From Eledone cirrhosa (taxonomy: Eukaryota): DNA of 64,000 nucleotides. Each line of letters opens with the position of its first letter. The stretch's first letter is position 1. The notes beneath the pieces are model-generated. The model searched no databases and had not been told where the DNA came from. It saw only the letters and a list, made by a program, of their open reading frames with translations. A program made the translations under genes and the position numbers. Below are positions 1 to 63,178 of the stretch, piece after piece. Where the stretch lies: NCBI GenBank assembly GCA_964016885.1, contig OZ024740.1, forward strand, positions 70,060,001-70,124,000. Direction: 5' to 3'.

Positions 1-3000
1 CATATTAACAGCTGAGCAGCCAAATTTGCATATCGAGTGAGTTCAGACGGCCGGGCACAGCGAAAACGATAAATGGAAGAGAATGAAACGAAATTTAATT
101 TCTCACTCTTAGTAAGGCACTTACTTAAATGCAAGTATGTATGTATACGTACATACGTATATGTATACAGACGTACAGTAGTATGCATATATATACACAC
201 ATGCACACATGTATATATGCACGTATCGGTTAACCGAACATTTATTATAATGCTCGGTTTGTTTGTTTGTAAACAAACAAACAGCCCGAATTACGCCGTA
301 CAGTGTTTAGGCAACCACGTCACCTTTTTGTTCAACGCGGACACAGGAACGATGTACTAGTTTGAAGCTTATTAGCTATCGTCATCAACGTATACCTTGC
401 AGCCAGATGGTTGAACGTCTGAAAGTATATACTTTCCTTATGCATATTAACAGCTGCGCAGCCTAATTTGCATATCGAATGAGTGCAGATGGCCGGGCAC
501 AACGAAAACGATAAATAGAATGGAATGAAACGAAATTTAATTTCTCACTCTTATGGCGGCACTTTCTTAAATGTAAGTATGTATGTATACGTACATACAT
601 ATATGTATACAGACGTACAGTAGTATGCATATATATACACACATTCACACATATATATATGCACGTATCGATTAACCGAACATTTATTATAATGCTCGAT
701 TTGTTTGTTTGTAAACAAACAAACAGCCCGAATTACGCCGTACAGTGTTTAGGCAACCACGTCACCTTTTTGTTCAACACTGACACAGGATCGAAGTACT
801 AGTTTCAAGCTTATTAGCTATCGTCATCATCGCAAACCTTCCAGCCAGATGGTTGAACGTCTGGAAGTATATACTTTCCTTATGCATATTAACAGCTGAG
901 CAGCCTAATTTGCATATCGGGTGAGTTCAGACGGCCGGGCACACCGAAAACGATAAATGGAATAGAATGAAACGAAATTTAATTTCTCACTCTTAGTACG
1001 GCACTTACTTAAATGTAAGTATGTATGTATACGTACATACATATATGTACAAAGACGTACAGTAGTATATATATATATATACACACATATATATATGCAC
1101 GTATCGGTTTACCGAACATTTATTATAATGCTCGGTTTGTTTGTTTGTAAACAAACAAACAGCCCGAAATACGCCGTACAGTGTTTAGGCAACCACGTCA
1201 CCTTTTTGTTCAACACTGACACAGGAACGATGTACTAGTTTCAAGCATATTAGCTATCGTCATCCTCGTATACCTTCCTGCCAGATGGTTGATCGTCTGA
1301 CAGTATATACTTTCCTTATGCATATTAACAGCTGAGCAGCCTAATTTGCATATCGAGTGAGTTCAGACGGCCGGGCACACCGAAAACGATGAATAGAATA
1401 GAATGAAACGAAATTTAATTTCTCACTCTTAGTACGGCACTTACTTAAATGTAAGTATGTATGTATACGTAGATACATATATGTATACAGACGTACAGTA
1501 GTATATATATATATACACACATGCATACATATATATATATGCACTCATCCTGTTTACGGAATATTGATTATAATGCTCGGTTACTTTGTTTGTAAACAAA
1601 CAAACAGCCCGAATTACCCCGTACAGTGTTTAGGCAACCAGGTCACCTTTTGGTTCAACACTGACACAGGAACGATGTACTAGTTTCAAGCTTATTAGCT
1701 ATCGTCATCGTCGTATACCTTCCTGCCAGATGGTTGAACGTCTGATAGTATATACTTTCCTTATGCATATTAACAGCTGAGCAGCCTAATTTGCATATCG
1801 AGTGAGTTCAGATGGCCGGGCACACCGAAAACGATAAATTTAATAGAATGAAACGAAATTTAATTTCTCACTCTTAGTACGGCCCTTACTTAAATCTAAG
1901 TATGTATGTATACGTACATACATATATGTATACAGACGTACAGTAATATGCATATATATACACACATGCACACATATATATATATGCACGTATCGGTTAA
2001 ACGAACATTTATTATAATGCTCGGTTTGTTTGTTTGTAAACAAACAAACAGCCCGAATTACGCCGTACAGTGTTTAGGCAACCACGTCACCTTTTTGTTC
2101 AACACTGACACAGGAACGATGTACTAGTTTCAAGCTTATTAGCTATCGTCATCATCGTATACCTTCCTGCCAGATGGTTGAACGTCTGAAAGTATATACT
2201 TTCCTTATGCATATTAACAGCTGAGCAGCCTAATTTGCATATCGAGTGAGTTCAGACGGCCGGGCACACCGAAAACGATAAATGGTATAGAATTAAACGA
2301 AATTTAATTTCTCACTCTTAGGGCGGCACTTACTTAAATGTAAGTATGTATGTATACGTACATACATATATGTATACAGACGTACAGTAGTATATATATA
2401 TATATGCCGATGCACACATATATATATGCACATTTCGGTTTACCGAACATTTATTATAATGCTCGGTTTGTTTGTTTGTAAACAAACAAACAGCCCGAAT
2501 TACGCCGTATGTGTTTAGGCAACCACGTCACCTTTTTGTTCAACACTGACACAGCAACGTTGTAGTAGTTTTAAGCTTATTAGCTATCGTCAGCATCGTA
2601 TACCTTCCTGCCAGATGGTTGAACGTCTGAAAGTATATACTTTCCTTATGCATATTAACAGCTGAGCAGCCTAATTTGCATATCGAGTGAGTTCAGACGG
2701 CCGGGCACACCGAAAACGATAAATGGAATAGAATGAAACGGAATTTAATTTCTCACTCTTAGTAAGGCACTTACTTAAATGCAAGTATGTATGTATACGT
2801 ACATACATATATGTATACAGACGTACAGTAGTATATATATACACACATGCACACATATATATATGCACGTATCGGTTTACCGAACATTTATTATAATGCT
2901 CTGTTTGTTTGTTTGTAAACAAACAAACAGCCCGAATTACGCCGTACAGTGTTTAGGCAACCACGTCACCTTTTTGTTCAACACTGTCACAGGAACGATG

Positions 3001-6000
3001 TACTAGTTTCAAGCTTATTAGCTATCGTCATCATCGTTTACCTTCCTGCCAGATGGTTGAACGTCTGAAAGTATATACTTTCCTTATGCATATTAACAGC
3101 TGAGCAACCTAATTTGCATATCGAATGAGTTCAGACGGCCGGGCACACCGAAAACGATAAATAGAATAGAATGAAACGAAATTTAATTTCTCACTCTTAG
3201 TACGGCACTTACTTAAATGCAAGTATGTATGTATACGTACATACATATATGTATACAGACGTACAGTAGTATGCATATATATACACACATATATATATGC
3301 ACGTATCGATTAACCGAACATTTATTATAATGCTCGGTTTGTTTGTTTGTAAACAAACAAACAGCCCGAATTACGCCGTACAGTGTTTAGGCAACCACGT
3401 CACCTTTTTGTTCAACACTGACACAGGAACGAAGTACTAGTTTCAAGCTTATTAGCTATCGTTAGCATCGTATACGTTCCTGCCAGTTGGTTGAACGTCT
3501 GAAAACATATACTTTCCTTATTCATATTAACGGCTGAGCAGCCTAATTTGCATATCGAGTGAGTTTAGACGGCCGGGCACACCGAAAACGATAAATGGAA
3601 TAGTATGAAACGAAATTTAATTTCTCACTCTTAGTACGGCACTTACTTAAATGCAAGTATGTATGTATACGTACATATATATATATATACAGACGTACAG
3701 TAGTATGCATATATATACACACATGCACACATATATATATGCACGTATCGGTTAACCGAACATTTATTATAATGCTCGGTTTGTTTGTTTGTAAACAAAC
3801 AAACAGCCCGAATTACGCCGTACAGTTTTTAGGCAACCACGTCACCTATTTCTTCAACACTGACACAGGAACGATGTACTAGTTTGAAGCTTATTAGCTA
3901 TCGTCATCAACGTATACCTTGCAGCCAGATGGTTGAACGTCTGAAAGTATATACTTTCCTTATGCATATTAACAGCTGAGCAGCCAAATTTGCATATCGA
4001 GTGAGTTCAGACGGCCGGGCACAGCGAAAACGATAAATGGAAGAGAATGAAACGAAATTTAATTTCTCACTCTTAGTAAGGCACTTACTTAAATGCAAGT
4101 ATGTATGTATACGTACATACGTATATGTATACAGACGTACAGTAGTATGCATATATATACACACATGCACACATGTATATATGCACGTATCGGTTAACCG
4201 AACATTTATTATAATGCTCGATTTGTTTGTTTGTAAACAAACAAACAGCCCGAATTACGCCGTACAGTGTTTAGGCAACCACGTCACCTTTTTGTTCAAC
4301 GCGGACACAGGAACGATGTACTAGTTTGAAGCTTATTAGCTATCGTCATCAACGTATACCTTGCAGCCAGATGGTTGAACGTCTGAAAGTATATACTTTC
4401 CTTATGCATATTAACAGCTGCGCAGCCTAATTTGCATATCGAATGAGTGCAGATGGCCGGGCACAACGAAAACGATAAATAGAATGGAATGAAACGAAAT
4501 TTAATTTCTCACTCTTATGGCGGCACTTTCTTAAATGTAAGTATGTATGTATACGTACATACATATATGTATACAGACGTACAGTAGTATGCATATATAT
4601 ACACACATTCACACATATATATATGCACGTATCGATTAACCGAACATTTATTATAATGCTCGATTTGTTTGTTTGTAAACAAACAAACAGCCCGAATTAC
4701 GCCGTACAGTGTTTAGGCAACCACGTCACCTTTTTGTTCAACACTGACACAGGATCGAAGTACTAGTTTCAAGCTTATTAGCTATCGTCATCATCGCAAA
4801 CCTTCCAGCCAGATGGTTGAACGTCTGGAAGTATATACTTTCCTTATGCATATTAACAGCTGAGCAGCCTAATTTGCATATCGGGTGAGTTCAGACGGCC
4901 GGGCACACCGAAAACGATAAATGGAATAGAATGAAACGAAATTTAATTTCTCACTCTTAGTACGGCACTTACTTAAATGTAAGTATGTATGTATACGTAC
5001 ATACATATATGTACAAAGACGTACAGTAGTATATATATATATATACACACATATATATATGCACGTATCGGTTTACCGAACATTTATTATAATGCTCGGT
5101 TTGTTTGTTTGTAAACAAACAAACAGCCCGAAATACGCCGTACAGTGTTTAGGCAACCACGTCACCTTTTTGTTCAACACTGACACAGGAACGATGTACT
5201 AGTTTCAAGCATATTAGCTATCGTCATCCTCGTATACCTTCCTGCCAGATGGTTGATCGTCTGACAGTATATACTTTCCTTATGCATATTAACAGCTGAG
5301 CAGCCTAATTTGCATATCGAGTGAGTTCAGACGGCCGGGCACACCGAAAACGATGAATAGAATAGAATGAAACGAAATTTAATTTCTCACTCTTAGTACG
5401 GCACTTACTTAAATGTAAGTATGTATGTATACGTAGATACATATATGTATACAGACGTACAGTAGTATATATATATATACACACATGCATACATATATAT
5501 ATATGCACTCATCCTGTTTACGGAATATTGATTATAATGCTCGGTTACTTTGTTTGTAAACAAACAAACAGCCCGAATTACCCCGTACAGTGTTTAGGCA
5601 ACCAGGTCACCTTTTGGTTCAACACTGACACAGGAACGATGTACTAGTTTCAAGCTTATTAGCTATCGTCATCGTCGTATACCTTCCTGCCAGATGGTTG
5701 AACGTCTGATAGTATATACTTTCCTTATGCATATTAACAGCTGAGCAGCCTAATTTGCATATCGAGTGAGTTCAGATGGCCGGGCACACCGAAAACGATA
5801 AATTTAATAGAATGAAACGAAATTTAATTTCTCACTCTTAGTACGGCCCTTACTTAAATCTAAGTATGTATGTATACGTACATACATATATGTATACAGA
5901 CGTACAGTAATATGCATATATATACACACATGCACACATATATATATATGCACGTATCGGTTAAACGAACATTTATTATAATGCTCGGTTTGTTTGTTTG

Positions 6001-9000
6001 TAAACAAACAAACAGCCCGAATTACGCCGTACAGTGTTTAGGCAACCACGTCACCTTTTTGTTCAACACTGACACAGGAACGATGTACTAGTTTCAAGCT
6101 TATTAGCTATCGTCATCATCGTATACCTTCCTGCCAGATGGTTGAACGTCTGAAAGTATATACTTTCCTTATGCATATTAACAGCTGAGCAGCCTAATTT
6201 GCATATCGAGTGAGTTCAGACGGCCGGGCACACCGAAAACGATAAATGGTATAGAATTAAACGAAATTTAATTTCTCACTCTTAGGGCGGCACTTACTTA
6301 AATGTAAGTATGTATGTATACGTACATACATATATGTATACAGACGTACAGTAGTATATATATATATATGCCGATGCACACATATATATATGCACATTTC
6401 GGTTTACCGAACATTTATTATAATGCTCGGTTTGTTTGTTTGTAAACAAACAAACAGCCCGAATTACGCCGTATGTGTTTAGGCAACCACGTCACCTTTT
6501 TGTTCAACACTGACACAGCAACGTTGTAGTAGTTTTAAGCTTATTAGCTATCGTCAGCATCGTATACCTTCCTGCCAGATGGTTGAACGTCTGAAAGTAT
6601 ATACTTTCCTTATGCATATTAACAGCTGAGCAGCCTAATTTGCATATCGAGTGAGTTCAGACGGCCGGGCACACCGAAAACGATAAATGGAATAGAATGA
6701 AACGGAATTTAATTTCTCACTCTTAGTAAGGCACTTACTTAAATGCAAGTATGTATGTATACGTACATACATATATGTATACAGACGTACAGTAGTATAT
6801 ATATACACACATGCACACATATATATATGCACGTATCGGTTTACCGAACATTTATTATAATGCTCTGTTTGTTTGTTTGTAAACAAACAAACAGCCCGAA
6901 TTACGCCGTACAGTGTTTAGGCAACCACGTCACCTTTTTGTTCAACACTGTCACAGGAACGATGTACTAGTTTCAAGCTTATTAGCTATCGTCATCATCG
7001 TTTACCTTCCTGCCAGATGGTTGAACGTCTGAAAGTATATACTTTCCTTATGCATATTAACAGCTGAGCAACCTAATTTGCATATCGAATGAGTTCAGAC
7101 GGCCGGGCACACCGAAAACGATAAATAGAATAGAATGAAACGAAATTTAATTTCTCACTCTTAGTACGGCACTTACTTAAATGCAAGTATGTATGTATAC
7201 GTACATACATATATGTATACAGACGTACAGTAGTATGCATATATATACACACATATATATATGCACGTATCGATTAACCGAACATTTATTATAATGCTCG
7301 GTTTGTTTGTTTGTAAACAAACAAACAGCCCGAATTACGCCGTACAGTGTTTAGGCAACCACGTCACCTTTTTGTTCAACACTGACACAGGAACGAAGTA
7401 CTAGTTTCAAGCTTATTAGCTATCGTTAGCATCGTATACGTTCCTGCCAGTTGGTTGAACGTCTGAAAACATATACTTTCCTTATTCATATTAACGGCTG
7501 AGCAGCCTAATTTGCATATCGAGTGAGTTTAGACGGCCGGGCACACCGAAAACGATAAATGGAATAGTATGAAACGAAATTTAATTTCTCACTCTTAGTA
7601 CGGCACTTACTTAAATGCAAGTATGTATGTATACGTACATATATATATATATACAGACGTACAGTAGTATGCATATATATACACACATGCACACATATAT
7701 ATATGCACGTATCGGTTAACCGAACATTTATTATAATGCTCGGTTTGTTTGTTTGTAAACAAACAAACAGCCCGAATTACGCCGTACAGTTTTTAGGCAA
7801 CCACGTCACCTATTTCTTCAACACTGACACAGGAACGATGTACTAGTTTGAAGCTTATTAGCTATCGTCATCAACGTATACCTTGCAGCCAGATGGTTGA
7901 ACGTCTGAAAGTATATACTTTCCTTATGCATATTAACAGCTGAGCAGCCAAATTTGCATATCGAGTGAGTTCAGACGGCCGGGCACAGCGAAAACGATAA
8001 ATGGAAGAGAATGAAACGAAATTTAATTTCTCACTCTTAGTAAGGCACTTACTTAAATGCAAGTATGTATGTATACGTACATACGTATATGTATACAGAC
8101 GTACAGTAGTATGCATATATATACACACATGCACACATGTATATATGCACGTATCGGTTAACCGAACATTTATTATAATGCTCGATTTGTTTGTTTGTAA
8201 ACAAACAAACAGCCCGAATTACGCCGTACAGTGTTTAGGCAACCACGTCACCTTTTTGTTCAACGCGGACACAGGAACGATGTACTAGTTTGAAGCTTAT
8301 TAGCTATCGTCATCAACGTATACCTTGCAGCCAGATGGTTGAACGTCTGAAAGTATATACTTTCCTTATGCATATTAACAGCTGCGCAGCCTAATTTGCA
8401 TATCGAATGAGTGCAGATGGCCGGGCACAACGAAAACGATAAATAGAATGGAATGAAACGAAATTTAATTTCTCACTCTTATGGCGGCACTTTCTTAAAT
8501 GTAAGTATGTATGTATACGTACATACATATATGTATACAGACGTACAGTAGTATGCATATATATACACACATTCACACATATATATATGCACGTATCGAT
8601 TAACCGAACATTTATTATAATGCTCGATTTGTTTGTTTGTAAACAAACAAACAGCCCGAATTACGCCGTACAGTGTTTAGGCAACCACGTCACCTTTTTG
8701 TTCAACACTGACACAGGATCGAAGTACTAGTTTCAAGCTTATTAGCTATCGTCATCATCGCAAACCTTCCAGCCAGATGGTTGAACGTCTGGAAGTATAT
8801 ACTTTCCTTATGCATATTAACAGCTGAGCAGCCTAATTTGCATATCGGGTGAGTTCAGACGGCCGGGCACACCGAAAACGATAAATGGAATAGAATGAAA
8901 CGAAATTTAATTTCTCACTCTTAGTACGGCACTTACTTAAATGTAAGTATGTATGTATACGTACATACATATATGTACAAAGACGTACAGTAGTATATAT

Positions 9001-12000
9001 ATATATATACACACATATATATATGCACGTATCGGTTTACCGAACATTTATTATAATGCTCGGTTTGTTTGTTTGTAAACAAACAAACAGCCCGAAATAC
9101 GCCGTACAGTGTTTAGGCAACCACGTCACCTTTTTGTTCAACACTGACACAGGAACGATGTACTAGTTTCAAGCATATTAGCTATCGTCATCCTCGTATA
9201 CCTTCCTGCCAGATGGTTGATCGTCTGACAGTATATACTTTCCTTATGCATATTAACAGCTGAGCAGCCTAATTTGCATATCGAGTGAGTTCAGACGGCC
9301 GGGCACACCGAAAACGATGAATAGAATAGAATGAAACGAAATTTAATTTCTCACTCTTAGTACGGCACTTACTTAAATGTAAGTATGTATGTATACGTAG
9401 ATACATATATGTATACAGACGTACAGTAGTATATATATATATACACACATGCATACATATATATATATGCACTCATCCTGTTTACGGAATATTGATTATA
9501 ATGCTCGGTTACTTTGTTTGTAAACAAACAAACAGCCCGAATTACCCCGTACAGTGTTTAGGCAACCAGGTCACCTTTTGGTTCAACACTGACACAGGAA
9601 CGATGTACTAGTTTCAAGCTTATTAGCTATCGTCATCGTCGTATACCTTCCTGCCAGATGGTTGAACGTCTGATAGTATATACTTTCCTTATGCATATTA
9701 ACAGCTGAGCAGCCTAATTTGCATATCGAGTGAGTTCAGATGGCCGGGCACACCGAAAACGATAAATTTAATAGAATGAAACGAAATTTAATTTCTCACT
9801 CTTAGTACGGCCCTTACTTAAATCTAAGTATGTATGTATACGTACATACATATATGTATACAGACGTACAGTCGTATATATATATACACACATGCACACA
9901 TATATATATATGCACGTATCCCGTTTACGGAACATTTATTATAATGCTCGGTTTGTTTGTTTGTAAACAAACAAACAGCCCGAATTACGCCGTACAGTGT
10001 TTAGGCAACCACGTCACCTTTTTGTTCAACACTGTCACAGGAACGATGTAGTAGTTTCAAGCTTATTAGCTATCGTCATCATCGTATACCTTCCTGCCAG
10101 ATGGTTGAACGTCTGAAAGTATATACTTTCCTTATGCATATTAACAGCTGAGCAGCCTAATTTGCATATCGAGTGAGTTCAGACGGCCGGGCACACCGAA
10201 AACGATAAATGGAAGGGAATGAAACGAAATTTCATTTCTCACTCTTAGTACGGCATTTACTTAAATGCAAGTATGTATGTATACGTACATACATATATGT
10301 ATACAGACGTACAGTAATATGCATATATATACACACATGCACACATATATATATATGCACGTATCGGTTAAACGAACATTTATTATAATGCTCGGTTTGT
10401 TTGTTTGTAAACAAACAAACAGCCCGAATTACGCCGTACAGTGTTTAGGCAACCACGTCACCTTTTTGTTCAACACTGACACAGGAACGATGTACTAGTT
10501 TCAAGCTTATTAGCTATCGTCATCATCGTATACCTTCCTGCCAGATGGTTGAACGTCTGAAAGTATATAATTTCCTTATGCATATTAACAGCTGAGCAGC
10601 CAAATTTGCATATCGAGTGAGTTCAGACGGCCGGGCACAGCGAAAACGATAAATGGAAGAGAATGAAACGAAATTTAATTTCTCACTCTTAGTAAGGCAC
10701 TTACTTAAATGCAAGTATGTATGTATACGTACATACGTATATGTATACAGACGTACAGTAGTATGCATATATATACACACATGCACACATGTATATATGC
10801 ACGTATCGGTTAACCGAACATTTATTATAATGCTCGGTTTGTTTGTTTGTAAACAAACAAACAGCCCGAATTACGCCGTACAGTGTTTAGGCAACCACGT
10901 CACCTTTTTGTTCAACGCGGACACAGGAACGATGTACTAGTTTGAAGCTTATTAGCTATCGTCATCAACGTATACCTTGCAGCCAGATGGTTGAACGTCT
11001 GAAAGTATATACTTTCCTTATGCATATTAACAGCTGCGCAGCCTAATTTGCATATCGAATGAGTGCAGATGGCCGGGCACAACGAAAACGATAAATAGAA
11101 TGGAATGAAACGAAATTTAATTTCTCACTCTTATGGCGGCACTTTCTTAAATGTAAGTATGTATGTATACGTACATACATATATGTATACAGACGTACAG
11201 TAGTATGCATATATATACACACATTCACACATATATATATGCACGTATCGATTAACCGAACATTTATTATAATGCTCGATTTGTTTGTTTGTAAACAAAC
11301 AAACAGCCCGAATTACGCCGTACAGTGTTTAGGCAACCACGTCACCTTTTTGTTCAACACTGACACAGGATCGAAGTACTAGTTTCAAGCTTATTAGCTA
11401 TCGTCATCATCGCAAACCTTCCAGCCAGATGGTTGAACGTCTGGAAGTATATACTTTCCTTATGCATATTAACAGCTGAGCAGCCTAATTTGCATATCGG
11501 GTGAGTTCAGACGGCCGGGCACACCGAAAACGATAAATGGAATAGAATGAAACGAAATTTAATTTCTCACTCTTAGTACGGCACTTACTTAAATGTAAGT
11601 ATGTATGTATACGTACATACATATATGTACAAAGACGTACAGTAGTATATATATATATATACACACATATATATATGCACGTATCGGTTTACCGAACATT
11701 TATTATAATGCTCGGTTTGTTTGTTTGTAAACAAACAAACAGCCCGAAATACGCCGTACAGTGTTTAGGCAACCACGTCACCTTTTTGTTCAACACTGAC
11801 ACAGGAACGATGTACTAGTTTCAAGCATATTAGCTATCGTCATCCTCGTATACCTTCCTGCCAGATGGTTGATCGTCTGACAGTATATACTTTCCTTATG
11901 CATATTAACAGCTGAGCAGCCTAATTTGCATATCGAGTGAGTTCAGACGGCCGGGCACACCGAAAACGATGAATAGAATAGAATGAAACGAAATTTAATT

Positions 12001-15000
12001 TCTCACTCTTAGTACGGCACTTACTTAAATGTAAGTATGTATGTATACGTAGATACATATATGTATACAGACGTACAGTAGTATATATATATATACACAC
12101 ATGCATACATATATATATATGCACTCATCCTGTTTACGGAATATTGATTATAATGCTCGGTTACTTTGTTTGTAAACAAACAAACAGCCCGAATTACCCC
12201 GTACAGTGTTTAGGCAACCAGGTCACCTTTTGGTTCAACACTGACACAGGAACGATGTACTAGTTTCAAGCTTATTAGCTATCGTCATCGTCGTATACCT
12301 TCCTGCCAGATGGTTGAACGTCTGATAGTATATACTTTCCTTATGCATATTAACAGCTGAGCAGCCTAATTTGCATATCGAGTGAGTTCAGATGGCCGGG
12401 CACACCGAAAACGATAAATTTAATAGAATGAAACGAAATTTAATTTCTCACTCTTAGTACGGCCCTTACTTAAATCTAAGTATGTATGTATACGTACATA
12501 CATATATGTATACAGACGTACAGTAATATGCATATATATACACACATGCACACATATATATATATGCACGTATCGGTTAAACGAACATTTATTATAATGC
12601 TCGGTTTGTTTGTTTGTAAACAAACAAACAGCCCGAATTACGCCGTACAGTGTTTAGGCAACCACGTCACCTTTTTGTTCAACACTGACACAGGAACGAT
12701 GTACTAGTTTCAAGCTTATTAGCTATCGTCATCATCGTATACCTTCCTGCCAGATGGTTGAACGTCTGAAAGTATATACTTTCCTTATGCATATTAACAG
12801 CTGAGCAGCCTAATTTGCATATCGAGTGAGTTCAGACGGCCGGGCACACCGAAAACGATAAATGGTATAGAATTAAACGAAATTTAATTTCTCACTCTTA
12901 GGGCGGCACTTACTTAAATGTAAGTATGTATGTATACGTACATACATATATGTATACAGACGTACAGTAGTATATATATATATATGCCGATGCACACATA
13001 TATATATGCACATTTCGGTTTACCGAACATTTATTATAATGCTCGGTTTGTTTGTTTGTAAACAAACAAACAGCCCGAATTACGCCGTATGTGTTTAGGC
13101 AACCACGTCACCTTTTTGTTCAACACTGACACAGCAACGTTGTAGTAGTTTTAAGCTTATTAGCTATCGTCAGCATCGTATACCTTCCTGCCAGATGGTT
13201 GAACGTCTGAAAGTATATACTTTCCTTATGCATATTAACAGCTGAGCAGCCTAATTTGCATATCGAGTGAGTTCAGACGGCCGGGCACACCGAAAACGAT
13301 AAATGGAATAGAATGAAACGGAATTTAATTTCTCACTCTTAGTAAGGCACTTACTTAAATGCAAGTATGTATGTATACGTACATACATATATGTATACAG
13401 ACGTACAGTAGTATATATATACACACATGCACACATATATATATGCACGTATCGGTTTACCGAACATTTATTATAATGCTCTGTTTGTTTGTTTGTAAAC
13501 AAACAAACAGCCCGAATTACGCCGTACAGTGTTTAGGCAACCACGTCACCTTTTTGTTCAACACTGTCACAGGAACGATGTACTAGTTTCAAGCTTATTA
13601 GCTATCGTCATCATCGTTTACCTTCCTGCCAGATGGTTGAACGTCTGAAAGTATATACTTTCCTTATGCATATTAACAGCTGAGCAACCTAATTTGCATA
13701 TCGAATGAGTTCAGACGGCCGGGCACACCGAAAACGATAAATAGAATAGAATGAAACGAAATTTAATTTCTCACTCTTAGTACGGCACTTACTTAAATGC
13801 AAGTATGTATGTATACGTACATACATATATGTATACAGACGTACAGTAGTATGCATATATATACACACATATATATATGCACGTATCGATTAACCGAACA
13901 TTTATTATAATGCTCGGTTTGTTTGTTTGTAAACAAACAAACAGCCCGAATTACGCCGTACAGTGTTTAGGCAACCACGTCACCTTTTTGTTCAACACTG
14001 ACACAGGAACGAAGTACTAGTTTCAAGCTTATTAGCTATCGTTAGCATCGTATACGTTCCTGCCAGTTGGTTGAACGTCTGAAAACATATACTTTCCTTA
14101 TTCATATTAACGGCTGAGCAGCCTAATTTGCATATCGAGTGAGTTTAGACGGCCGGGCACACCGAAAACGATAAATGGAATAGTATGAAACGAAATTTAA
14201 TTTCTCACTCTTAGTACGGCACTTACTTAAATGCAAGTATGTATGTATACGTACATATATATATATATACAGACGTACAGTAGTATGCATATATATACAC
14301 ACATGCACACATATATATATGCACGTATCGGTTAACCGAACATTTATTATAATGCTCGGTTTGTTTGTTTGTAAACAAACAAACAGCCCGAATTACGCCG
14401 TACAGTTTTTAGGCAACCACGTCACCTATTTCTTCAACACTGACACAGGAACGATGTACTAGTTTGAAGCTTATTAGCTATCGTCATCATCGTATACCTT
14501 CCTGCCAGATGGTTGAACGTCTGAAAGTATATACTTTCCTTGTGCATATTAACAGCTGAGCAGCCTAATTTGCATATCGAGGAATTCAGACGGCCGGGCA
14601 CACCAAAAACGATAAATAGAATAGAATTAAACGAAATTTAATTTCTCACTCTTAGTAAGGCACTTACTTAAATGTAAGTATGTATGTATACGTAGATACA
14701 TATATGTATACAGACGTACAGTAGTATATGTATATATACACACACTTATATATATGCACGTATCGGTTTACCGAACATTTATTAGAATGCTCGGTTTGTT
14801 TGTTTGTAAACAAACAGACAGCCCGAATTACGCCGTATGTGTTTAGGCAACCACGTCACCTTTTTGTTCAACACTGACACAGGAACGATGTACTAATATC
14901 AAGCTTATTAGCTATCGTCATCATCGTACACCCTCCTGCCAGATGGTTGAACGTCTGAAAGTATATACTTTCATTATGCATATTAACAGCTGATCTGCCT

Positions 15001-16199
15001 AATTTGCATATCGCGTGAGTTCAGACGGCCGGGCACACCAAAAACGATAAATGGAATAGAATGAAACGAAATTTAATTTCTCACTCTTAGTACGGCTTTT
15101 ACTTAAATGCAAGTATGTATGTATACGTACATACATATATGTCTACAGCCGTACAGTAGTATATATATATATATATACACACATATATATGTACATGTAT
15201 CGTTTTACCGAATATTTATTATAATGCTCGGTTTGTTTGTTTGTAAACAATCAAACAGCCCGAATTACGCCGTACAGGGTTTAGGCAACCACGTCACCTT
15301 TTTGTTCAACACTGACACAGAAACGATATACTAGTTTCAAGCTTATTAGCTATCGTCATCATCGTATACCTTCCTGCCTGATGGTTGAACGTCTGAAAAC
15401 ATATACTTTCCTTATGCATATTAACAGCTGAGCAGCCTAATTTGCATAGCGAGTGAGTTCAGACGGCCGGGCACACCGAAAACGATAAATAGAATAGAAT
15501 TAAACGAAATTTAATTTCTCACTCTTAATACGGCACTTACTTAAATGTAAGTATGTATGTATACGTACATACATATATGTATACAGACGTACAGTAGTAT
15601 ATATATATATATACACCCATGCACACATATAAATATGCACATTTCGGTTTACCGAACATTTATTATAATGCTCGGTTTGTTTGTTTGTAAACAAACAAAC
15701 AGCCCGAATTACGCCGTACAGTGTTTAGGCAACCACGTCACCTTTTTGTTCAACACTGACGCAGGAACGATGTACTAGTTTCAAGCTTATTAGCTATCGT
15801 TATCATCGTACACCTTCCTGCCAGATGGTTGAACGTCTGAAAGTATATACTTTCCTTATGCATATTAACAGCTGAGCAGCCTAATTTGCATCTCGAGTGA
15901 GTTCAGACGGCCGGGCACACCGAAAACAATAAATGGAATAGAATGAAACGAAATTTAATTTCTCACTCTTAGTAAGGCACTTACTTAAATGTAAGTATGT
16001 ATGTATACGTACATACATATATGTATACAGCCGTACAGTAGTATATATATATACACACATATATATATGCACGCATCGGTTTACCGAACATTTATTATAA
16101 TGCTTGGTTTGTTTGTTTGTAAACAAACAAACAGCCCGAATTACGCCGTACAGTGTTTAGGCAACCACGTCAACTTTTTGTTCAACACTGACTTAGAAA

Positions 16200-16240
16200 C
16201 GATGTACTAGTTTCAAGCTTATTAGCTATCGTCAGCATCG
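16200..16240 (-). ncRNA. Minimal type I hammerhead ribozyme with intact core, in a satellite monomer
   Basis: Minus strand reads CGATG-CTGACGA-TAGCT AATA AGCTT-GAAA-CTAG-TA-CATCG. This gives stem I CGATG/CATCG, a CUGANGA core, stem II AGCT/AGCT, GAAA, a palindromic ACTAGT helix III and a GUA cleavage triplet. Confidence 0.88.
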
Positions 16241-16641
16241 TATACCTTCCTGCCAGATGGTTGAACGTCTGAAAGTATATAATTTCCTTATGCATATTAA
16301 CGGCTGAGCAGCCTAATTTGCATATCGAGTGAGTTCAGACGGCCGGGCACACCGAAAACGATAAATGGAATAGAATGAAACGAAATTTAATTTCTCACTC
16401 TTAGGGCGGCACTTATTTAAATGCAAGTATGTATGTATACGTACATACATATATGTATACAGACGTACAGGAGTATATATATATATACACACATGCACAC
16501 ATATATATATGCACGTATCGCTTTACCGAACATTTATTATAATGCTCGGTTTGTTTGTTTGTAAACAAACAAACAGCCCGAATTACGCCGTACAATGTTT
16601 AGGCAACCACGTCACCTTTTTGTTCGACAATGACACAGGAA

Positions 16642-16682
16642 CGATGTACTAGTTTCAAGCTTATTAACTATCCTCAGCATCG
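16642..16682 (-). ncRNA. Minimal type I hammerhead ribozyme with intact core, in the last satellite monomer
   Basis: Minus strand reads CGATG-CTGAGGA-TAGTT AATA AGCTT-GAAA-CTAG-TA-CATCG. The changes relative to 16200 are at the variable N7 position and a G-U pair in stem II, both tolerated. Stem I can extend via CAGGAA/TTCCTG. Confidence 0.85.
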
Positions 16683-16743
16683 TATACCTTCCTGCCAAAT
16701 TATTGAACGTATGAAACTATATACTTTCCTTATGCATATTAAC

Positions 16744-17146
16744 GATATCGTTTTCGGTGTGCCCGGCCGACTGAACTCACTCGATATGCAAATTAGACTG
16801 CTCAGCTGTTAATATGCATAAGGAAATTATATACTTTCAGACGTTCAACCATCTGGCAGGAAGGTATACGATGATGACGATAGCTAATAAGCTTGTAACT
16901 AGTACATCGTTCCTGTGTCAGTGTTGAACAAAAAGTGACGTGGTTGCCTAAACACTGTACGGCATAATTCGGGCTGTTTGTTTGTTTACAAACAAACAAA
17001 CCGAGCATTATAATAAATGTTCGTTTAACCGATACGTGCATATATATATATATGTGTGCATGTGTGTATATATATGCATACTACTGTACGTCTGTATACA
17101 TATATGAATGTACGTATACATACATACATACATACATACTTGCATT

Positions 17147-17147
<1 letters not shown>
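16744..17147 (+). repeat. Inverted partial satellite monomer terminating the array
   Basis: Reverse complement of the monomer (ATCGTTTTCGGTGTGCCCGGCCG...). Its HHR copy near 16869-16909 is mutated (ATGACGA, GTAA). It ends in (TA)n. Confidence 0.93.
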
Positions 17148-17178
<31 letters not shown>

Positions 17179-17188
17179 TAAAAGAATC

Positions 17189-20146: not shown

Positions 20147-22966
20147 GATTTCTTTAAAAAGAAAAACATCACAGACGGAACAGAACGGTACGATGTGGGT
20201 TTTGTGCGTGTAAATATTTTTTATTATTTATATAAGAAAAGAAAAAAGACATAAAACATATATATATATAAACAATAAAATGAAAATAGAAACAATGAAA
20301 AATTCCCCAATAGGGGGGAAACCTCCGTGGGTTACTCGTGGCGAAAACCACACAAAAGACGACGGCCACCCTGACCACCAGGGAAAGCGCCCTCTCTCAA
20401 TTTTCCATACTTCAAACTACAAGCGTATATCCAGTGCGGTCCTCTTGACTCGGACCATTCTCGGTACATTCACCCACCTTTCAACAGACTTGCTAGAAGA
20501 CAGCACTTGCCTCTCCACCCTGATTTTCCTCTTCAAGTGAAACTTGAAAAAGTTAATCAGGGATTCGCCGAAGAGGAAAGTGTCTGTCTTTAACCCTATC
20601 AACCTTGTCCACCACACAATCTCTTTCGCCATGGCCACCAGACAGATGAAAACCGCCTGCCCTTGCTCCTCGAAGGAAGACGGCGAGACCATCTGCACAA
20701 TGGACTCAGTCGATAACCGGATCGGTCCTGCACGCGACAACAACTGTTCGACATAGCTCCACAAGTCAGCAATGCCCGGGCACTGAACGAGTGCGTGCAC
20801 GACGGTTTCGTCGCTCTGCGCGCATCTCGGACAGGCTCGGCTGACGGCACTTCCGTGCCTGTAGAGCTTATCTCGAACCGGCAGCGCTCCCCGGTAGCAC
20901 TGCCAGGCCAGGGATTTTTTGGAAGTTATCCATAGGCCCCGGGCTGAAAGTTCTCCGGAAGAGAGCAAGCAGCTGATCTTCTTCGACGCCCAGGATCTCT
21001 CCGAGAACGTCGTCGCTCTTCCCTTCCACTAGTCCTCTATAGAACGCCGAGGTGGATGTTCCACCGATACTGGTGCCCAACTGGGAGAGGGCAGTGAGCG
21101 CCTGGAGACATTCCAGTTTCCAAGCGCTATCCCTCGGTCTTTTTCTGACCCAGGACTGCAGCTCCGTCAAGGAGACGAGCTGTGGGAAAATGTGCCTGGC
21201 GAACGGCGACCACACCCGTTCACCATCAAGGAAGCATCAGAGATGTCGCAGCCTCAGCGTATGTTTGCGCATCATCAGTCATGGCATTCCCAGTCCTCCA
21301 CGCAACGGGTGTTGACAGCAGGTGGATCGTCTGACCATGGGAGCGCGTCCCTTCCACAAAAACCGGAAGAGGAGGCGCTCCATTTTGGTGAGAGTTGGGC
21401 TGGAGCAAGGGACGACGGTGAGGCGGTAGCAGATGGCGGATGTGATGTACGCATTCGCCACTTCCGCCCGGCCTTTCAGGGACAGCTTCCTCTCAGCCCA
21501 TTTCTGGGTGAGGGAGGCCACCCTGCTCGTCACCCGTTCCAGTTTTTCTCCATCTGGAGGTCCGGTCCGAACCAGACCCCGAGCAATTTAACCGGTCCGT
21601 CCGTCCAACGCCCCACCACGCTGTCGGACGGCATGGACTTGCCTCTCCAGGTGCCTAGCTGCAAGCCCACCGACTTTTCCTGGTTTATCTTTGCTCCTGT
21701 CACCGTTTCGTATTCCTTGAGCGCGGTGCCGAGCATCTGGACGTGCCTGGTGCTCGATACCACCACGGCGACGTCGTCAGCGTAAGCCGACTCGGATTTC
21801 CCACATCCTAATTCGCGTGGGACGCCCTTCATCGCCCCCAGTTTGTGCAGTAACGGCTCGAGAGCCAATATGTACAAGAGGGACGAGAGGGGACAACCCT
21901 GGCAAACTGAGCGCATGATGCTGAACGGCTGCGACAGGTGACCGTTCACCCTCACAACTGAGCAGATGTCGCTGTACATTGCTGCGATCCAACGCCTGAA
22001 AACGGGCCCGAGGCCGGCTGCCTCGAGGACCGCCGCCAGGTACCGATGGTCGACCCTATCGAATGCTTTGGATTGATCCAAGTTGATCAGGGCCCCACCC
22101 TTGCCAGGTTCCTTAACCACCCTCTCTATGATGTATCGCATGAGGTGGAGGTTGTCGTGTATGGATCTGTCCGGGATGGCGCATGTCTGCGCCTCTCCCA
22201 CCAGACCCTTGACGACAAGCGCCAACCTCGTTGCTAACACCTTGGCCAAAATCTTGAACTCTGCATTTAGCAGAGTTATGGGCCTGAAATTATCAATAAC
22301 ATCCCCCTTGTTCGGGTCTTTTCTCAGCAGCGCCAATGCTCCCCGGCTCACAAAACTGGGAATGCTCCCGTTCTGCTGCCAGTTACAGTAGACGTCTGCC
22401 AAGAGGTCCCGAACAAGTCTGGCATAAATGCATAAAGCTCGTAGGGTAGACCATCTAAACCTGGCGATTTACCTCTTGTACAGTTAGCCATCGCTTCCCG
22501 TATTTCACCGGCTGTTATTGGCTTTTCGCAACACTGTGCTGCGGTCGTCGAGAGCCGAGGCAGTCCGTCGAGGTATGCACTGAAGTCCATGTCCCGATCC
22601 GGGCCGCCGCCGCTCCCGAACAGTTCAGCAAAGTGCTGCTGAAAAGCTTCACACATCCGCTCGGGTTCGAGCATCACGCACCCGTTTTGGTCAGACAAAG
22701 ACCGAATTGTGGCTTTATTGCCACGTCGCGCCTCTGCCACCTGGGCCCATTGGACGGCTTTTGTCCCCTCGTGTTTCTGAGTACGCGCTCTAGCTCTGAC
22801 AACGCAGCCTTCGTGTTTTGCGTTGAAGAATTGGTCGAGTGCCAATCTCGCCGCAAGCACCTCGGTTGCGATGCCTGTCCTAAACGCCTCTTCTAGCTTT
22901 CTGACTAGCTCACCCTCTACTCTATTTTCCTCTATCACTACTCCTTTGCTAAACCTAATCGACTTT
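20147..22966 (-). mobile_element. 5'-truncated Tx1/L1-clade non-LTR retrotransposon with an 11-bp target-site duplication
   Basis: ATTAAAATAAT flanks both ends (20136-20146 and 22967-22977). The uninterrupted target is visible in the sense pLTR copy near 26428-26438. Confidence 0.92.
20417..22938 (-). pseudogene. Frameshifted ORF2 (reverse transcriptase plus C-terminal zf-RVT) of Tx1-like LINE
   Basis: ORF pieces contain KSPGLDGLPYELY, FRPITLLNAEFKILAK, LDQSKAFDRVDH, QGCPLS, AYADD and CPRCAQSDETVVHALVQC, spread over several frames. Confidence 0.93.
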
Positions 22967-26074: not shown

Positions 26075-26462
26075 TCATCTAGCTCCATTTTTACTTGTAG
26101 CTAATAAGTTAAATAGCTATGACTAACTTAGATAATTATAAGTTACCTCCCCTACATTGTCTCTCAATTAAAAAATTAAAAAAATTAGCACTTAACTATA
26201 AACTACCCACAATTTCTAATCTCTAGAGGAGTTACTTCCCCTGAAACCACCCTCTAATTAGTAAGGTAAATATGTCCTTTGGCAGCCATCTTGTTACCCA
26301 TAGGCAGATCTCACACAATGCAATCTCGACAGATGAATACTGCTTGATTATGGCTGACAACTGATGCAACCAAGACACCATAGTGAAAAACCAATATATG
26401 GAACATTATATTATGTAACATTCTCTTATTATTTTAATGAAGTTCCGATGAGTTCCTTTGAA

Positions 26463-49901: not shown

Positions 49902-49998
<97 letters not shown>

Positions 49999-50155
49999 TG
50001 GAATAAATGCTCTGAAATAGCGATATATATGTGAATATAGACATAGAATATTCGAAAATATTCTGTATGTTTATAATAAACATTTTGAAGACCTAATCGC
50101 TATAGAATAGAATACGTCACGTATTACAATTAGATTCTCGATAAAAGCAAGGGAA

Positions 50156-50198
50156 GTAATCTACGCGTTTCATTCTCGTTAGAAATCATCAGGACTAC
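50156..50198 (-). ncRNA. Type I hammerhead ribozyme (second minus copy at 50466-50508)
   Basis: Reverse complement of the 50910 motif. Confidence 0.9.
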
Positions 50199-50909
50199 AT
50201 ATCCAGTGCTTTTATCGAGAATGACACAGCTAGAGACTTATAGAATACTTAGCTGTGTACAGGAACTGGTTTGAAAGAGCGGTTGCCGGTCCGGCAGAAA
50301 TTAGAAATTGGAATAAATGCTCTGAAATAGCGATATATATGTGAATATAGACATAGAATATTCGAAAATATTCTGTATGTTTATAATAAACATTTTGAAG
50401 ACCTAATCGCTATAGAATAGAATACGTCACGTATTACAATTAGATTCTCGATAAAAGCAAGGGAAGTAATCTACGCGTTTCATTCTCGTTAGAAATCATC
50501 AGGACTACATATCCAGTGCTTTTATCGAGAATGACACAGCTAGAGACTTATAGAATACTTAGCTGTGTACAGGAACTGGTTTGAAAGAGCGGTTGCCGGT
50601 CCGGCAGAAATTAGAAATTGGAATAAATGCTCTGAAATAGCGATATATATGTGAATATAGACATAGAATATTCGAAAATATTCTGTATGTTTATAATAAG
50701 CATTTTGAAGACCTAATCGCTTTATAAACATACAGAATATTTTCGAATATTCTATGTCTATATTCACATATATATCGCTATTTCAGAGCATTTATTCCAA
50801 TTTCTAATTTCTGCCGGACCGGCAACCGCTCTTTCAAACCAGTTCCTGTACACAGCTAAGTATTCTATAAGTCTCTAGCTGTGTCATTCTCGATAAAAGC
50901 ACTGGATAT

Positions 50910-50952
50910 GTAGTCCTGATGATTTCTAACGAGAATGAAACGCGTAGATTAC
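50910..50952 (+). ncRNA. Type I hammerhead ribozyme (further copies at 51220, 51530 and 51840)
   Basis: GTAGTC-CTGATGA-TTTCT AACG AGAAT-GAAA-CGCG-TA-GATTAC with palindromic ACGCGT. Stem I is extended by a perfect 16-bp ATTCTCGATAAAAGCA/TGCTTTTATCGAGAAT. Confidence 0.93.
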
Positions 50953-52002
50953 TTCCCTTGCTTTTATCGAGAATCTAATTGTAATACGTGACGTATTCTA
51001 TTCTATAGCGATTAGGTCTTCAAAATGTTTATTATAAACATACAGAATATTTTCGAATATTCTATGTCTATATTCACATATATATCGCTATTTCAGAGCA
51101 TTTATTCCAATTTCTAATTTCTGCCGGACCGGCAACCGCTCTTTCAAACCAGTTCCTGTACACAGCTAAGTATTCTATAAGTCTCTAGCTGTGTCATTCT
51201 CGATAAAAGCACTGGATATGTAGTCCTGATGATTTCTAACGAGAATGAAACGCGTAGATTACTTCCCTTGCTTTTATCGAGAATCTAATTGTAATACGTG
51301 ACGTATTCTATTCTATAGCGATTAGGTCTTCAAAATGTTTATTATAAACATACAGAATATTTTCGAATATTCTATGTCTATATTCACATATATATCGCTA
51401 TTTCAGAGCATTTATTCCAATTTCTAATTTCTGCCGGACCGGCAACCGCTCTTTCAAACCAGTTCCTGTACACAGCTAAGTATTCTATAAGTCTCTAGCT
51501 GTGTCATTCTCGATAAAAGCACTGGATATGTAGTCCTGATGATTTCTAACGAGAATGAAACGCGTAGATTACTTCCCTTGCTTTTATCGAGAATCTAATT
51601 GTAATACGTGACGTATTCTATTCTATAGCGATTAGGTCTTCAAAATGTTTATTATAAACATACAGAATATTTTCGAATATTCTATGTCTATATTCACATA
51701 TATATCGCTATTTCAGAGCATTTATTCCAATTTCTAATTTCTGCCGGACCGGCAACCGCTCTTTCAAACCAGTTCCTGTACACAGCTAAGTATTCTATAA
51801 GTCTCTAGCTGTGTCATTCTCGATAAAAGCACTGGATATGTAGTCCTGATGATTTCTAACGAGAATGAAACGCGTAGATTACTTCCCTTGCTTTTATCGA
51901 GAATCTAATTGTAATACGTGACGTATTCTATTCTATAGCGATTAGGTCTTCAAAATGTTTATTATAAACATACAGAATATTTTCGAATATTCTATGTCTA
52001 TA

Positions 52003-52043
<41 letters not shown>

Positions 52044-60260: not shown

Positions 60261-60361
60261 CAATAATGTTTTGAACAGTTCTTTGATTCTTATATTTCAT
60301 ATATATATATATATATATATACATTTATATACTGGACTCCTTTGAAGAGGACCTGCTGAAA

Positions 60362-62807
60362 ATGATCAAAAACGTTAAGCTCAGAAAGAAACACCAATGC
60401 AGCAATCCATTCTTAACGTCCCTTGATACACTAATAACTAAGATCAAGAATGACCCGCACCTCTTCGTCACCTCCGACAAAACCAAAAAGCTGTACAAGA
60501 TGGACGCGAGTGAGTATAAAAAATTCATCTATAAGGAACTACACAAAGACTACAAAAAGACACCCTCTAGTACCCTAAATGACATAAATAGAGTAGGGAA
60601 GGATATAGTCACCAGCCTAGAAATAGAAAAGTACACTAACCCGTACGTCCCTCTGACGCCTAAATTCTCTCTTAAGGATCACAAATATGACTTTAATGAA
60701 AGCCCCTCTATTAGACTTATATGCCCCTCTACATCAGATATAGGTAAGATTAGTAAAGTGATCCTTGACAGAGTACTACTCGAGCTTAATAGAAAGGCTA
60801 AGGTCTACCTCTGGGGCAACACACCTGAAATTCATCCAGTTTGATATAGATAGCTACTACGCCTCTATCTCCCCCATACTCTTAAATAAGGCACTTATCT
60901 TAGCTAGATCTAACACTAGCCTCACCAAAAAAGAAATAGACATAATTCTAGCGGCACGTAGAACCATTATCCAGTTCGAAGGCTCCCACTGGACCAGAAC
61001 CAACCGTCCTGATAACTTCGATGTCACGATGGGGTCCAGCGACTCAGCGCAAGCAACTGACCTGGTTGGGATATACCTCCTACATAAGCTTAGGGAAGAA
61101 ATACCGGCCCTACAAGGAGGTGTATATAGGGACGACGCCCTGTTTACTGTTAGGAACCATAGCCCCCGTAGGATAGAGAACCTTAACAAACATATACACA
61201 GGTTCTTTAAGTCATACGGCCTATCCGTAACTATGGACCTCAACCACAGGGTTGTCAACTTCCTGGACGTGACCCTGGAGTTGAGTACGGGCTTATACAA
61301 GCCATACCATAAGCCTGGAGAGTGCCTCTCTTATATTAATTATGCCTCCAACCACCCTAAGCAGACTCTCAACTCCATTGTCTATAGTATCTCACATAGG
61401 ATCTCGAGGCTATCCGCCAATGAGGATATCTTCAACCAAGCGGCTGATTACTACAATAGGGCCCTGATAAGCGCCGGCTTTAACCGAGGAATTTCCTACA
61501 TCCCTAACGCTAGCTCTAGAAACCACCCCCCTCATAAAACTAACGTTATAGTAAGCCATACCTATAACCGATCACGCGGCGACCTCGTTAAAGTCGGATA
61601 TAATAGAATAGATAACCGCACCAAAGATCACGTCCCCGGCGACGGTGAATACTGTAGATTACTCAAACTTTTCCCCTATTACAAAACCAACAAAGGCGAC
61701 GGCCTACTACCAACGCCTTCCAACCAACATCTTCGTGTACATAAACATGGAAGTGGTAGAAAGAGTGCACCCGAGCATAAAGTGAAAGGGGCACCGAACG
61801 GGCGACAGCGCATTAACACACATATGAGCGATCACTTAGATGGAACTACCCGTAGCAAAAGTACAAGGACACGTAATCGCCACCGTAACGTCCTATGGTT
61901 CCACCCCCCCTACTCTCGAAGTGTGGCCTCCAACATACCCCGGATATTCTTCGAAGCCTTAGAGAAGAACTTCCCACCCAACCATAGGTATAGAAAAATT
62001 CTTAATAGGAACAATATAAAAATATCCTTCTCTACTACTCCTAACCTAGCAGACATCATAGGAACAACGAACCACAGTAAGATCACCAAGACACAGCACC
62101 TCGACGCAGACGCACCTACACCTGACAATAACTGTATCGGCCTTAACAACTCCCTGACAGCATCCAATAGTGTTGGCAACGGCATCCGCAGACGCAACCA
62201 GAATGACCGCGAAGTGACTGGGGAGCATGCAAAACATGGCGTGCGGAATAACAATCGCACCATCCCGCGTGCTGTGGGTTGTAATTGTGCTAACGACAGC
62301 TGCGGTAGCGCAGCTAGCAACGTAGGCAGCAACAATGATAGCCTTATCGTGGGAAATAGACGGAACAGCGACAGAAATTGCAACTGCCGCGACAGAGGAC
62401 GGTGCCTCCTTAGAGGTTACTGCTTGACCGATAGGGTTATATATAGATGCACTATTACTAGCCACAATAGCGTTAAACATTATATAGGGGCCACCTCCGG
62501 CCCGTTCAAAATTAGGTTTCGAACACATCTCCACTCTTTCACAAATAGAAAACTAAGGCACTCCACCTCGCTCGCGGACTACATCACATCACTAAAGGAC
62601 TTAAACATTAGCTTCTCCACGCACTGGGAGATTGTCGACAGGGCTGCACCGTACAACTTCAAGAGGAAATGCGATCTTTGCCTCATGGAGCTCTACCACA
62701 TCATAACTGCACCCCACGAGCTCATCAACAGCAGAGCTGAAACAGCGATAAGTTGTACACATCGCTTAAAAATATCCTTCTTTAGATGGGTTAAGAATGA
62801 AGAGTGA
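60362..62807 (+). pseudogene. Penelope RT-GIY-YIG polyprotein with one frameshifting lesion near 60820
   Basis: SDKTKKLY, IRLICPSTSDIGKISK / FDIDSYYASI, FDVTMGS, VYRDDAL, VNFLDVTL, WFHPPYS, CNC, VIYRC...HYIGAT, CDLCLME. Confidence 0.95.
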
Positions 62808-63060
62808 AATAGCACACTGGATCTCCCTGCAACAAGTCTTAACACCCCGGCGGGCAGGCGCAGCAAAATAACACCCAGAAAACAATCCTTGCATACCAAA
62901 AATTATCCGGGAAAGACTGCCCTAACACCGGCCAAAGTTACCTCCCTTGACCTGCTGCAAAATCAAAACAAGATATTTTTGCGAGCAATGAATCTTGATG
63001 TGGATTTAACCCCCAAAACTCTTTCCGAACTATATAAGGAACTCTTGTGATTGTTTATGC

Positions 63061-63095
63061 CCTTGAGAAGCCCAACTGGGCGAAACGTACGTAGG
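63061..63095 (+). ncRNA. Minimal hammerhead ribozyme, U3-A8 variant, in the pseudo-LTR of Penelope element 3
   Basis: CC-TTGAGAA-GCCC AACT GGGC-GAAA-CGTACG-TA-GG with palindromic ACGTACGT. Stem I is short. Confidence 0.75.
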
Positions 63096-63178
63096 TGATA
63101 TTTTAAATAAACATGTTTTAACGGTCTATTCTCCGATTTTTCACTTTCCCACGTACATTTATATATTTATTTATAAAT

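Follow-up and report, generated by a model that had tools for sequence, protein, structure and literature searches.

The window analysed here, a stretch of 64,000 nucleotides from the genome of Eledone cirrhosa (contig OZ024740.1, positions 70,060,001 to 70,124,000), opens with a long tandem array of monomers that carry a type I hammerhead ribozyme motif on the minus strand and belong to a dispersed hammerhead retrozyme. The question raised by this locus is how such a retrozyme comes to form an array of 48 units with higher-order structure, and in particular whether it was inserted as a multimer or grew at the DNA level from a few units. The reading that we favour, and consider likely, is that the array represents one old multimer insertion of the retrozyme, driven by a Penelope-like element (PLE) and primed on two strands, which aged and was then enlarged by recent unequal crossover. 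The array is a known kind of element; the interesting part is the rule by which these insertions are laid down, with two arms taking two sites.

Extent, founder and age of the array

Tandem Repeats Finder reports a single array at 1-16743 (period 442, 38 copies, 93% matches), and cutting at a fixed anchor yields 38 monomers in the window, 432-445 bp each and with a GC content of 0.36-0.39, in agreement with the tandem ~440-bp monomers of the initial annotation. With 100 kb to the left fetched, the array extends just beyond the window edge, and the whole arm, at G000:C1:70,055,695-70,076,743, measures 21,049 bp and holds 48 hammerheads. The parts are as follows, in window coordinates.

1..16743, minus strand: retrozyme main arm, 38 units in the window, continuing 4.3 kb to the left
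16746..17148, plus strand: inverted arm, a partial monomer that carries C3A (C to A at position 3 of the hammerhead core) and one further array allele and ends at the family 3' site A
17147..17180, no strand: (TA)n target microsatellite

Membership of a dispersed hammerhead retrozyme, as had been proposed, is borne out across the assembly: the monomer is spread over many scaffolds (4120 candidates, 39 scored; at least 150 matches), and the exact intact 41-nt ribozyme has 1,723 genome-wide matches, with 0 in the control. A looser pattern, in which U and U flank a 12-nt stem II region, has 43,315 matches (control 0), the first 100 listed of which all belong to two motif types found in the window; unit spacings among these 100 are ~310, 424-430, 466 and 484-516 bp, indicating several subfamilies. 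Most of the sampled dispersed copies of the array family consist of 1-4 units. The search for dispersed copies with intact hammerheads, recommended earlier, found a canonical core in 56 of 65 motifs at 24 dispersed loci, as against 2 of 48 in the array.

Four near-fixed alleles are common to the 18 array unit types, and these are nearly fixed only within the array. A 48-nt pattern built on array alleles has 15 matches, all in the array locus, while a 26-mer with C3A has 39 genome matches, 21 of them in the array locus and the other 18 single; the array haplotype is absent from these 18 (258T in 0/11 readable copies, 308T in 0/4, 345T in 1/15). In the tree the 18 unit types form one clade (95/85) on a short stem, the bootstrap being not fully settled, and the tree is near star-shaped, with array end branches near the tree median of 0.018, like those of dispersed units. 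The private shared alleles, the single clade and the dispersed-like branch lengths together indicate that the array descends from one founder and is about as old as the dispersed copies. The array as a source of new copies was rejected, since exact-match patterns found no copies elsewhere with array alleles.

Several observations sit less easily with a single multimer insertion. The dispersed loci are top matches to an intact-core query and therefore biased to intact cores. Some alleles are common to subsets of units, which suggests that part of the early growth took place in situ; stepwise haplotypes TTCC, TTTC and TTTA are present. Eight of the 48 units retain C3; the inverted arm, which shares C3A and 345T with the main arm, lacks 308T and has the family base at 308. 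A template consisting of one pure monomer circle would account neither for the C3 survivors nor for the base at 308, which call for either a mixed template or conversion.

Two arms, two 3' sites and the probable birth state of arrays

Copies of the array family stop at one of two sites, A and B, which lie 56 nt from each other, and there pass into (TA)n. We examined 42 loci (25 from the first search, 16 single C3A copies and the window end), and 24 of these contain a diverging arm pair. Both ends lie at A or B in 17 pairs, 15 of them A+B, 2 A+A and none B+B, where independence predicts about half A+B (P ~0.001). Against the rule must be set the other 7 of the 24 pairs, the window's own included, in which one arm ends elsewhere or is cut off. 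The window array, which closes in an inverted partial monomer (16746-17148) and then (TA)n (17147-17180) much as first described, keeps the end at site A on its inverted arm; its other end is lost. At the left, the array abuts the interior of a SINE-like repeat, the two sharing the 5-bp microhomology TACGG at the join, and nearby copies of that repeat continue differently at the junction point (15 of 17 matches reach the junction). Since this left end is not a family end and is joined by microhomology, it looks like a deletion that removed the original end. The B end of the main arm would have gone with it, and the array may once have been longer than it is now.

The features of PLE-type insertion are thus present, namely a tandem arm with an inverted 5'-truncated arm, a microsatellite target and two alternative 3' ends, and the Penelope-type geometry that had been claimed for the window stands on its diverging arms, its (TA)n and the two 3' ends. 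Short tandem units end directly in (TA)n, and the insertions have no layout of long terminal repeat, internal region and long terminal repeat, no scan for open reading frames, primer-binding sites or polypurine tracts having been made. Family membership, the single founder, its age, the recent block copies and the geometry of insertion can all be read from the sequence.

A younger relative in the same window shows what an early state of such an array could look like.

49992..52015, no strand: 310-bp sister retrozyme, two diverging arms (2 + 4 hammerheads); 4/4 full units identical, (TA)n on both sides

The 310-bp family has the same hammerhead layout as the 440-bp family in different letters, and 4,226 exact motifs in the genome. 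Ten loci were compared, the window's and nine chosen for several units from the first 100 listed matches. Across these loci 80 of 86 full units equal their own locus majority, arms reach 14 hammerheads and 9 of 10 loci are two-armed; in all nine pairs the arms end at different distances past the cut site, one at 127-144 nt and the other at 164-187 nt. At two loci a variant occurs in both of the 2 full units, in one case with one unit per arm. The 310-bp locus is probably a model of the birth state of the array, in which near-identical units make up two arms that diverge within (TA)n. Two further hammerhead-like motifs lie in the window, at 35487-35532 and 48508-48556, one of another type and one related to the 310-bp family.

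Nor is the array unique, for three other long arrays of its family were seen among the first matches alone. The longest (G000, C2:382,983,400-383,043,850) runs to 136 units over ~60 kb, with a canonical core in 109/136; it has a stem I G-U allele of its own, closes normally in (TA)n and contains 15 pairs of near-identical units at lag 14. Another (C6:48,408,000-48,418,600) has 24 units with repeated blocks and a canonical core in 23/24; it includes repeated 313-bp deletion units. The third (C8:34,013,000-34,026,100) has at least 26 units with a canonical core in 14/26, several core changes being common to its units. Since the long C2 and C6 arrays are mostly canonical, ribozyme loss is unnecessary for array growth, and block duplication recurs.

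These observations bear on the best-surviving alternative, in which an insertion of 1-3 retrozyme units grew to 48 entirely by tandem duplication of DNA. The small size of most sampled dispersed copies, the four alleles near-fixed in the array only and the stepwise haplotypes would all be expected of it, and the 136-unit array far exceeds any young arm observed. Even so, we think it unlikely: on a near-star tree with dispersed-like end branches early growth would have to be a burst at insertion, the inverted arm carries two array alleles and young sister insertions are already long tandems. It follows from the last point that 'amplified in place', the earlier wording, is probably half the story; it fits the higher-order blocks, whose copies match with 0-1 mismatches, and not the whole of the growth.

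The favoured reading also calls for a mobiliser, and a candidate type is found near the right end of the window.

60287..63165, plus strand: Hydra-type Penelope-like element, 5'-truncated and frameshifted; reverse transcriptase (RT; DKT, YRDD), CxCx5C linker and GIY-YIG-like C-terminal region

A motif scan finds the Hydra-clade marks (DKT, CxCx5C, a C-terminal GIY-YIG, no CCHH and a (TA)n target), and the element has a hammerhead-like motif in its 3' region and a TA-rich 3' junction. The element's family is young, with 150 matches that are 97-100% identical and open frames as long as 968 aa. (TA)n follows one end site in 12 of 30 copies and a second site, about 160 nt beyond the first, in 17. 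Atlas neighbours of the PLE frames carry RVT_1, HTH_animal and GIY-YIG, and Mollusca is the commonest phylum in 3 of 7 rows. Two results tell against this assignment of partner: Pfam did not recognise the PLE frames, and the monomer has no similarity to four PLE stretches from 2 families, which leaves geometry as the ground for proposing this type of partner. In the same comparison an origin of the monomer in a PLE terminal repeat (pLTR) found no support.

The hammerhead-like motif of the young Hydra-type PLE (window 63060-63095) reads CUUGAGA ahead of a 4-bp stem, after which come GAAAC and a stem III that is palindromic; it is the same in most of the 30 copies, and its core departs from CUGANGA. 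A second PLE (22962-26443) has diverging arms at 22962-24156 and 25245-26443 that are 95.5% alike; it lies within a LINE, and its end is close to an (ATT)n tract. A 441-bp inverted repeat (99.3%; 57874-58314 and 59864-60304) encloses a PLE endonuclease fragment and is flanked by TA tracts. Non-LTR retrotransposon copies at 39899-45564 and 20304-22962 carry RVT_1 and zf-RVT with an upstream endonuclease-like frame, and have a 626-aa ORF1-like frame without a Pfam match.

Higher-order blocks and probable ribozyme loss

Within the main arm the monomers are organised in blocks, the letters standing for unit types.

1..7928, minus strand: two 9-mer blocks ABCDEFGHI, 3964 bp each
7929..10580, minus strand: 6-mer block ABCDxy, 2652 bp, present again left of the window as a complete copy and the greater part of another
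10581..14544, minus strand: third 9-mer block, whose last unit differs at 4 positions from the other two copies
14545..16734, minus strand: five single-copy diverged units, the non-duplicated edge

The order in the window is ABCDEFGHI twice, ABCDxy, ABCDEFGHi and then the 5 diverged units, and to the left the array reads part of C, then Dxy, then ABCDxy, giving block sizes of 6-6-9-9-6-9 across the whole. The 9-mer first recognised (lag 3964, a 5918-bp match with 1 mismatch) is real, but there are three 9-mers and, besides them, about three copies of a 6-mer variant (lag 2652, 3066 bp, 1 mismatch). Matches at lag 6616 (3919 bp, 1 mismatch) and lag 10580 (6571 bp, 0 mismatches) complete the series, the exact block matches spanning 1954-6571 bp with 0-1 mismatches. 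Distinct unit types lie ~32 differences apart (range 19-47; 78 pairs of 13 types), or ~7%, and many unit pairs at lags 6, 9, 15, 18 and 24 have 0-1 differences; the blocks, at 0-1 per 2-6.5 kb, are far more alike than the monomers, as a higher-order repeat demands. Given so few mismatches across blocks, the duplications of 9, 6 and 15 units that produced them are very recent. Unit E equals x over its first 180 bases and y over bases 132-434, a hybrid make-up (x left, y right) that has the pattern of unequal crossover.

Blocks of 2-6.5 kb with 0-1 differences, together with a left end that breaks off abruptly within the repeated part, might also arise if the higher-order structure or the length were partly an assembly product, near-identical blocks having been collapsed or expanded. 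This we regard as improbable, as neither the window nor the adjoining 100 kb on the left contains any N, the blocks follow an irregular order (6-6-9-9-6-9) with hybrid junctions inside units, the left junction is a clean microhomology join and another array also has 14-unit block copies.

The layout, with its homogeneous blocks and diverged edge units, recalls alpha satellite, and in frogs the ends and centres of chromosomes are enriched in retrozyme multimers (bioRxiv 10.64898/2026.07.22.740005). A functional centromere-like or heterochromatin-nucleating satellite, its higher-order repeat kept by selection, is nevertheless very improbable: with 21 kb and three 9-mers the array falls short of the hundreds of kb to Mb expected, its alleles are confined to this locus within the assembly, several comparable arrays are spread over different scaffolds, and the flanks on both sides are ordinary LINE, SINE, transposon and microsatellite sequence. 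The initial annotation's extent of >17 kb stands; 'large' and 'alpha-satellite-like' are not supported.

As to the ribozyme, the family form on the minus strand comprises a 6-bp stem I, the core CUGACGA, a 4-bp stem II flanked by U and U, GAAA and a 2-bp stem III within the palindrome ACUAGU (2-nt loop), with GUA at the predicted cut site. This is the layout as originally written, although the notation '(C/A)' at core position 3 hid the fact that 40 of 48 array hammerheads have A3 and just 2 are canonical. The assignment to type I likewise holds; the qualifier 'minimal' does not, because helix sizes of 6, 4 and 2 bp for I, II and III are those of the canonical, dimer-active metazoan type I form (PMC4209133). 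AATAAA does sit where indicated (~110 nt downstream), 109 nt past the cleavage site, but as a poly(A) signal it was rejected as likely incidental, being far from both family 3' ends in insertions that end in (TA)n. Representative motifs are the following.

16199..16241, minus strand: type I hammerhead with canonical core, identical to the family form
16641..16683, minus strand: second canonical-core hammerhead, with an N7 change and one G-U pair in stem II
2116..2158, minus strand: C3A hammerhead, an example of the form in 40/48 units

Both canonical cores lie at the right edge and none inside the higher-order blocks; the 6 non-canonical hammerheads without C3A have G5A or G12A. C3 pairs with G8, and C3G abolishes hammerhead cleavage (PMC11167929); by analogy C3A would do the same, and the higher-order part of the array is probably ribozyme-dead, neutral DNA.

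That the motif is a hammerhead is argued by the descriptor check proposed at the outset, which matched the real monomer and 0 of 5000 dinucleotide shuffles, and by the comparison of two independent families: between the array family and the 310-bp family, which have unrelated bodies, 60/60 cells are paired and 6 of 12 stem pairs are altered on both sides. A designed double-hammerhead reaches -20.2 kcal/mol against a dimer minimum of -20.4, monomers without stem III giving -7.1 each; the modelled energies are compatible with dimer use, not proof of it. Four points weigh on the other side. A base pair of purine and pyrimidine usually stands at the stem II position where U-U is found here, which is unusual. 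The Rfam hammerhead search, also recommended, returned 0 matches at gathering score for the window and none among 85 + 3 weak matches in E-value mode (the weak snoRNA and microRNA matches being chance or microsatellite effects). The intact motifs, as single strands, fold no better than shuffles (z 0.31 and -0.78). And 8 of 9 predicted frog retrozyme dimers failed to cleave in vitro (bioRxiv 10.64898/2026.07.22.740005). A short palindromic helix III is itself taken to suggest dimer activity (PMC4209133).

That C3A caused the long array, through an uncut or stabilised template, is scarcely credible: C3A is in 40/48 units and the inverted arm, and 12/26 cores are broken in the C8 array, but the longest array found keeps 109/136 cores and the C6 array 23/24, on which we reject a dead ribozyme as a general cause of long arrays, and the 18 other C3A copies are single.

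Proposed mechanism and known systems

Ribozyme cleavage, circle formation, Hydra-type two-strand priming and birth as a long multimer would be the founding steps of the multimer insertion that we favour. By inference from published retrozymes, tandem transcripts would be cut at GUA, probably as double hammerheads, and then circularised. A Hydra-type Penelope RT/GIY-YIG protein would cut both strands of a (TA)n tract, cDNA would be primed from both ends at the fixed internal RNA sites A and B, 56 nt apart, and the circle or multimer would be copied several times to give two diverging arms. The insertion was probably born with many units, of which ~14-16 lineages survive, and its founder template would already have carried the private alleles, including C3A. 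The units then diverged by ~2-3% each, like the dispersed copies, after which unequal crossover or replication slippage would have copied blocks of 9, 6 and 15 units to reach 48, and a deletion through the 5-bp microhomology seen at the junction would have taken the original left end.

A broader proposal, which is a serious possibility and which we advance tentatively, is that retrozyme arrays would be satellites from birth. Both (TA)n strands would be cut by a dimeric Penelope RT-endonuclease, and its two primers would roll round one circular RNA from two different fixed sites, each event laying down two diverging arms of identical units, up to kilobases long and one per site. If this were true, we would have the genomic footprint of the proposed circle-templated, PLE-driven retrozyme cycle, the inverted-tandem structure and 'tail' of PLEs would be explained as a single event, and PLEs would directly produce the seeds of satellites, which with age would become higher-order arrays; such hammerheads number >40,000 in this genome.

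Parts of this scheme are already in the literature. Circle-templated, PLE-driven insertion of retrozymes has been proposed, not shown, and their mobilisation is stated to be open, in an account that also describes non-LTR retrozyme tandems up to 62-mers in coral (PMC7229834), and in whose main text neither 'octopus' nor 'cephalopod' occurs. Arrays up to 180 and 300 units, with a PLE origin, local amplification and an explicit PLE-to-satellite model, are reported together with frog retrozymes, where 24 of 57 families matched known elements, nearly all of them PLEs (bioRxiv 10.64898/2026.07.22.740005). The route from retrozyme to long array, at first taken as novel for this lineage, is therefore not new. 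Tandem and inverted PLE insertions with a 'tail' have been described, their formation being named as open, and (TA)n is the target of Hydra elements (PMC8557442). Both strands were cut and extended by a PLE protein in vitro, with starts at the two internal RNA positions that delimit the 'tail'; mutation of C3 removed cleavage but not insertion, so that the PLE accepts RNA with a dead hammerhead (PMC11167929). The portion of PMC2808323 available reports no higher-order repeats for pDo500, and we found no paper on higher-order repeats in a retrozyme array, on one-arm-per-site insertion or on retrozyme twin priming, subscription papers lying outside the literature covered.

The array itself matters little, being neutral-looking, mostly ribozyme-dead and the product of a few recent block duplications; its higher-order structure is real but small, recent and generic. 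What this genome offers is a graded series, from fresh two-armed insertions through aged short copies to arrays of 24-136 units and higher-order arrays, and this series, the one-arm-per-site rule and the young (TA)n-targeting PLE make the circle-templated two-strand-priming model testable.

In primate alpha satellite, higher-order repeats consist of diverged monomers in near-identical blocks, with variant blocks and diverged edge monomers, and the layout of the array is similar; unlike alpha satellite, it is 21 kb long and not megabases, with three to six block copies and monomers ~7% apart. Newt satellite 2, the schistosome satellite and cricket pDo500 (PMC7229834, PMC2808323) are likewise tandem repeats with a short-helix-III hammerhead, but these, compared by description, are genome-wide families, whereas here we have one 21-kb locus with private alleles. 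The closest likeness in body plan is to the metazoan non-LTR retrozymes (PMC7229834; bioRxiv 10.64898/2026.07.22.740005), with one type I hammerhead per unit, units of 150-450 bp, GC <45%, no coding frame, dispersed short tandems with a few long arrays and co-occurring PLEs. From these, as far as those texts describe them, the octopus element differs in the U-U that flanks stem II in both families, in the lack of pLTR homology to the four PLE stretches compared, in an array core mutated in 46/48, and in its higher-order blocks and one-arm-per-site rule. In mode of insertion the likeness is to Hydra-clade PLEs (PMC8557442) and the PAc system (PMC11167929), which share the (TA)n target, the tandem and inverted 5'-truncated arms, the two alternative 3' ends ('tail') and priming on both strands. 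Unlike the Hydra-clade PLEs, however, the retrozyme encodes nothing; the two retrozyme families have their ends 36 and 56 nt apart and the local PLE ~160 nt, where 30-40 bp is described for that clade; and the start site in PAc in vitro is the same for both strands (PMC11167929), whereas here the arms take different sites.

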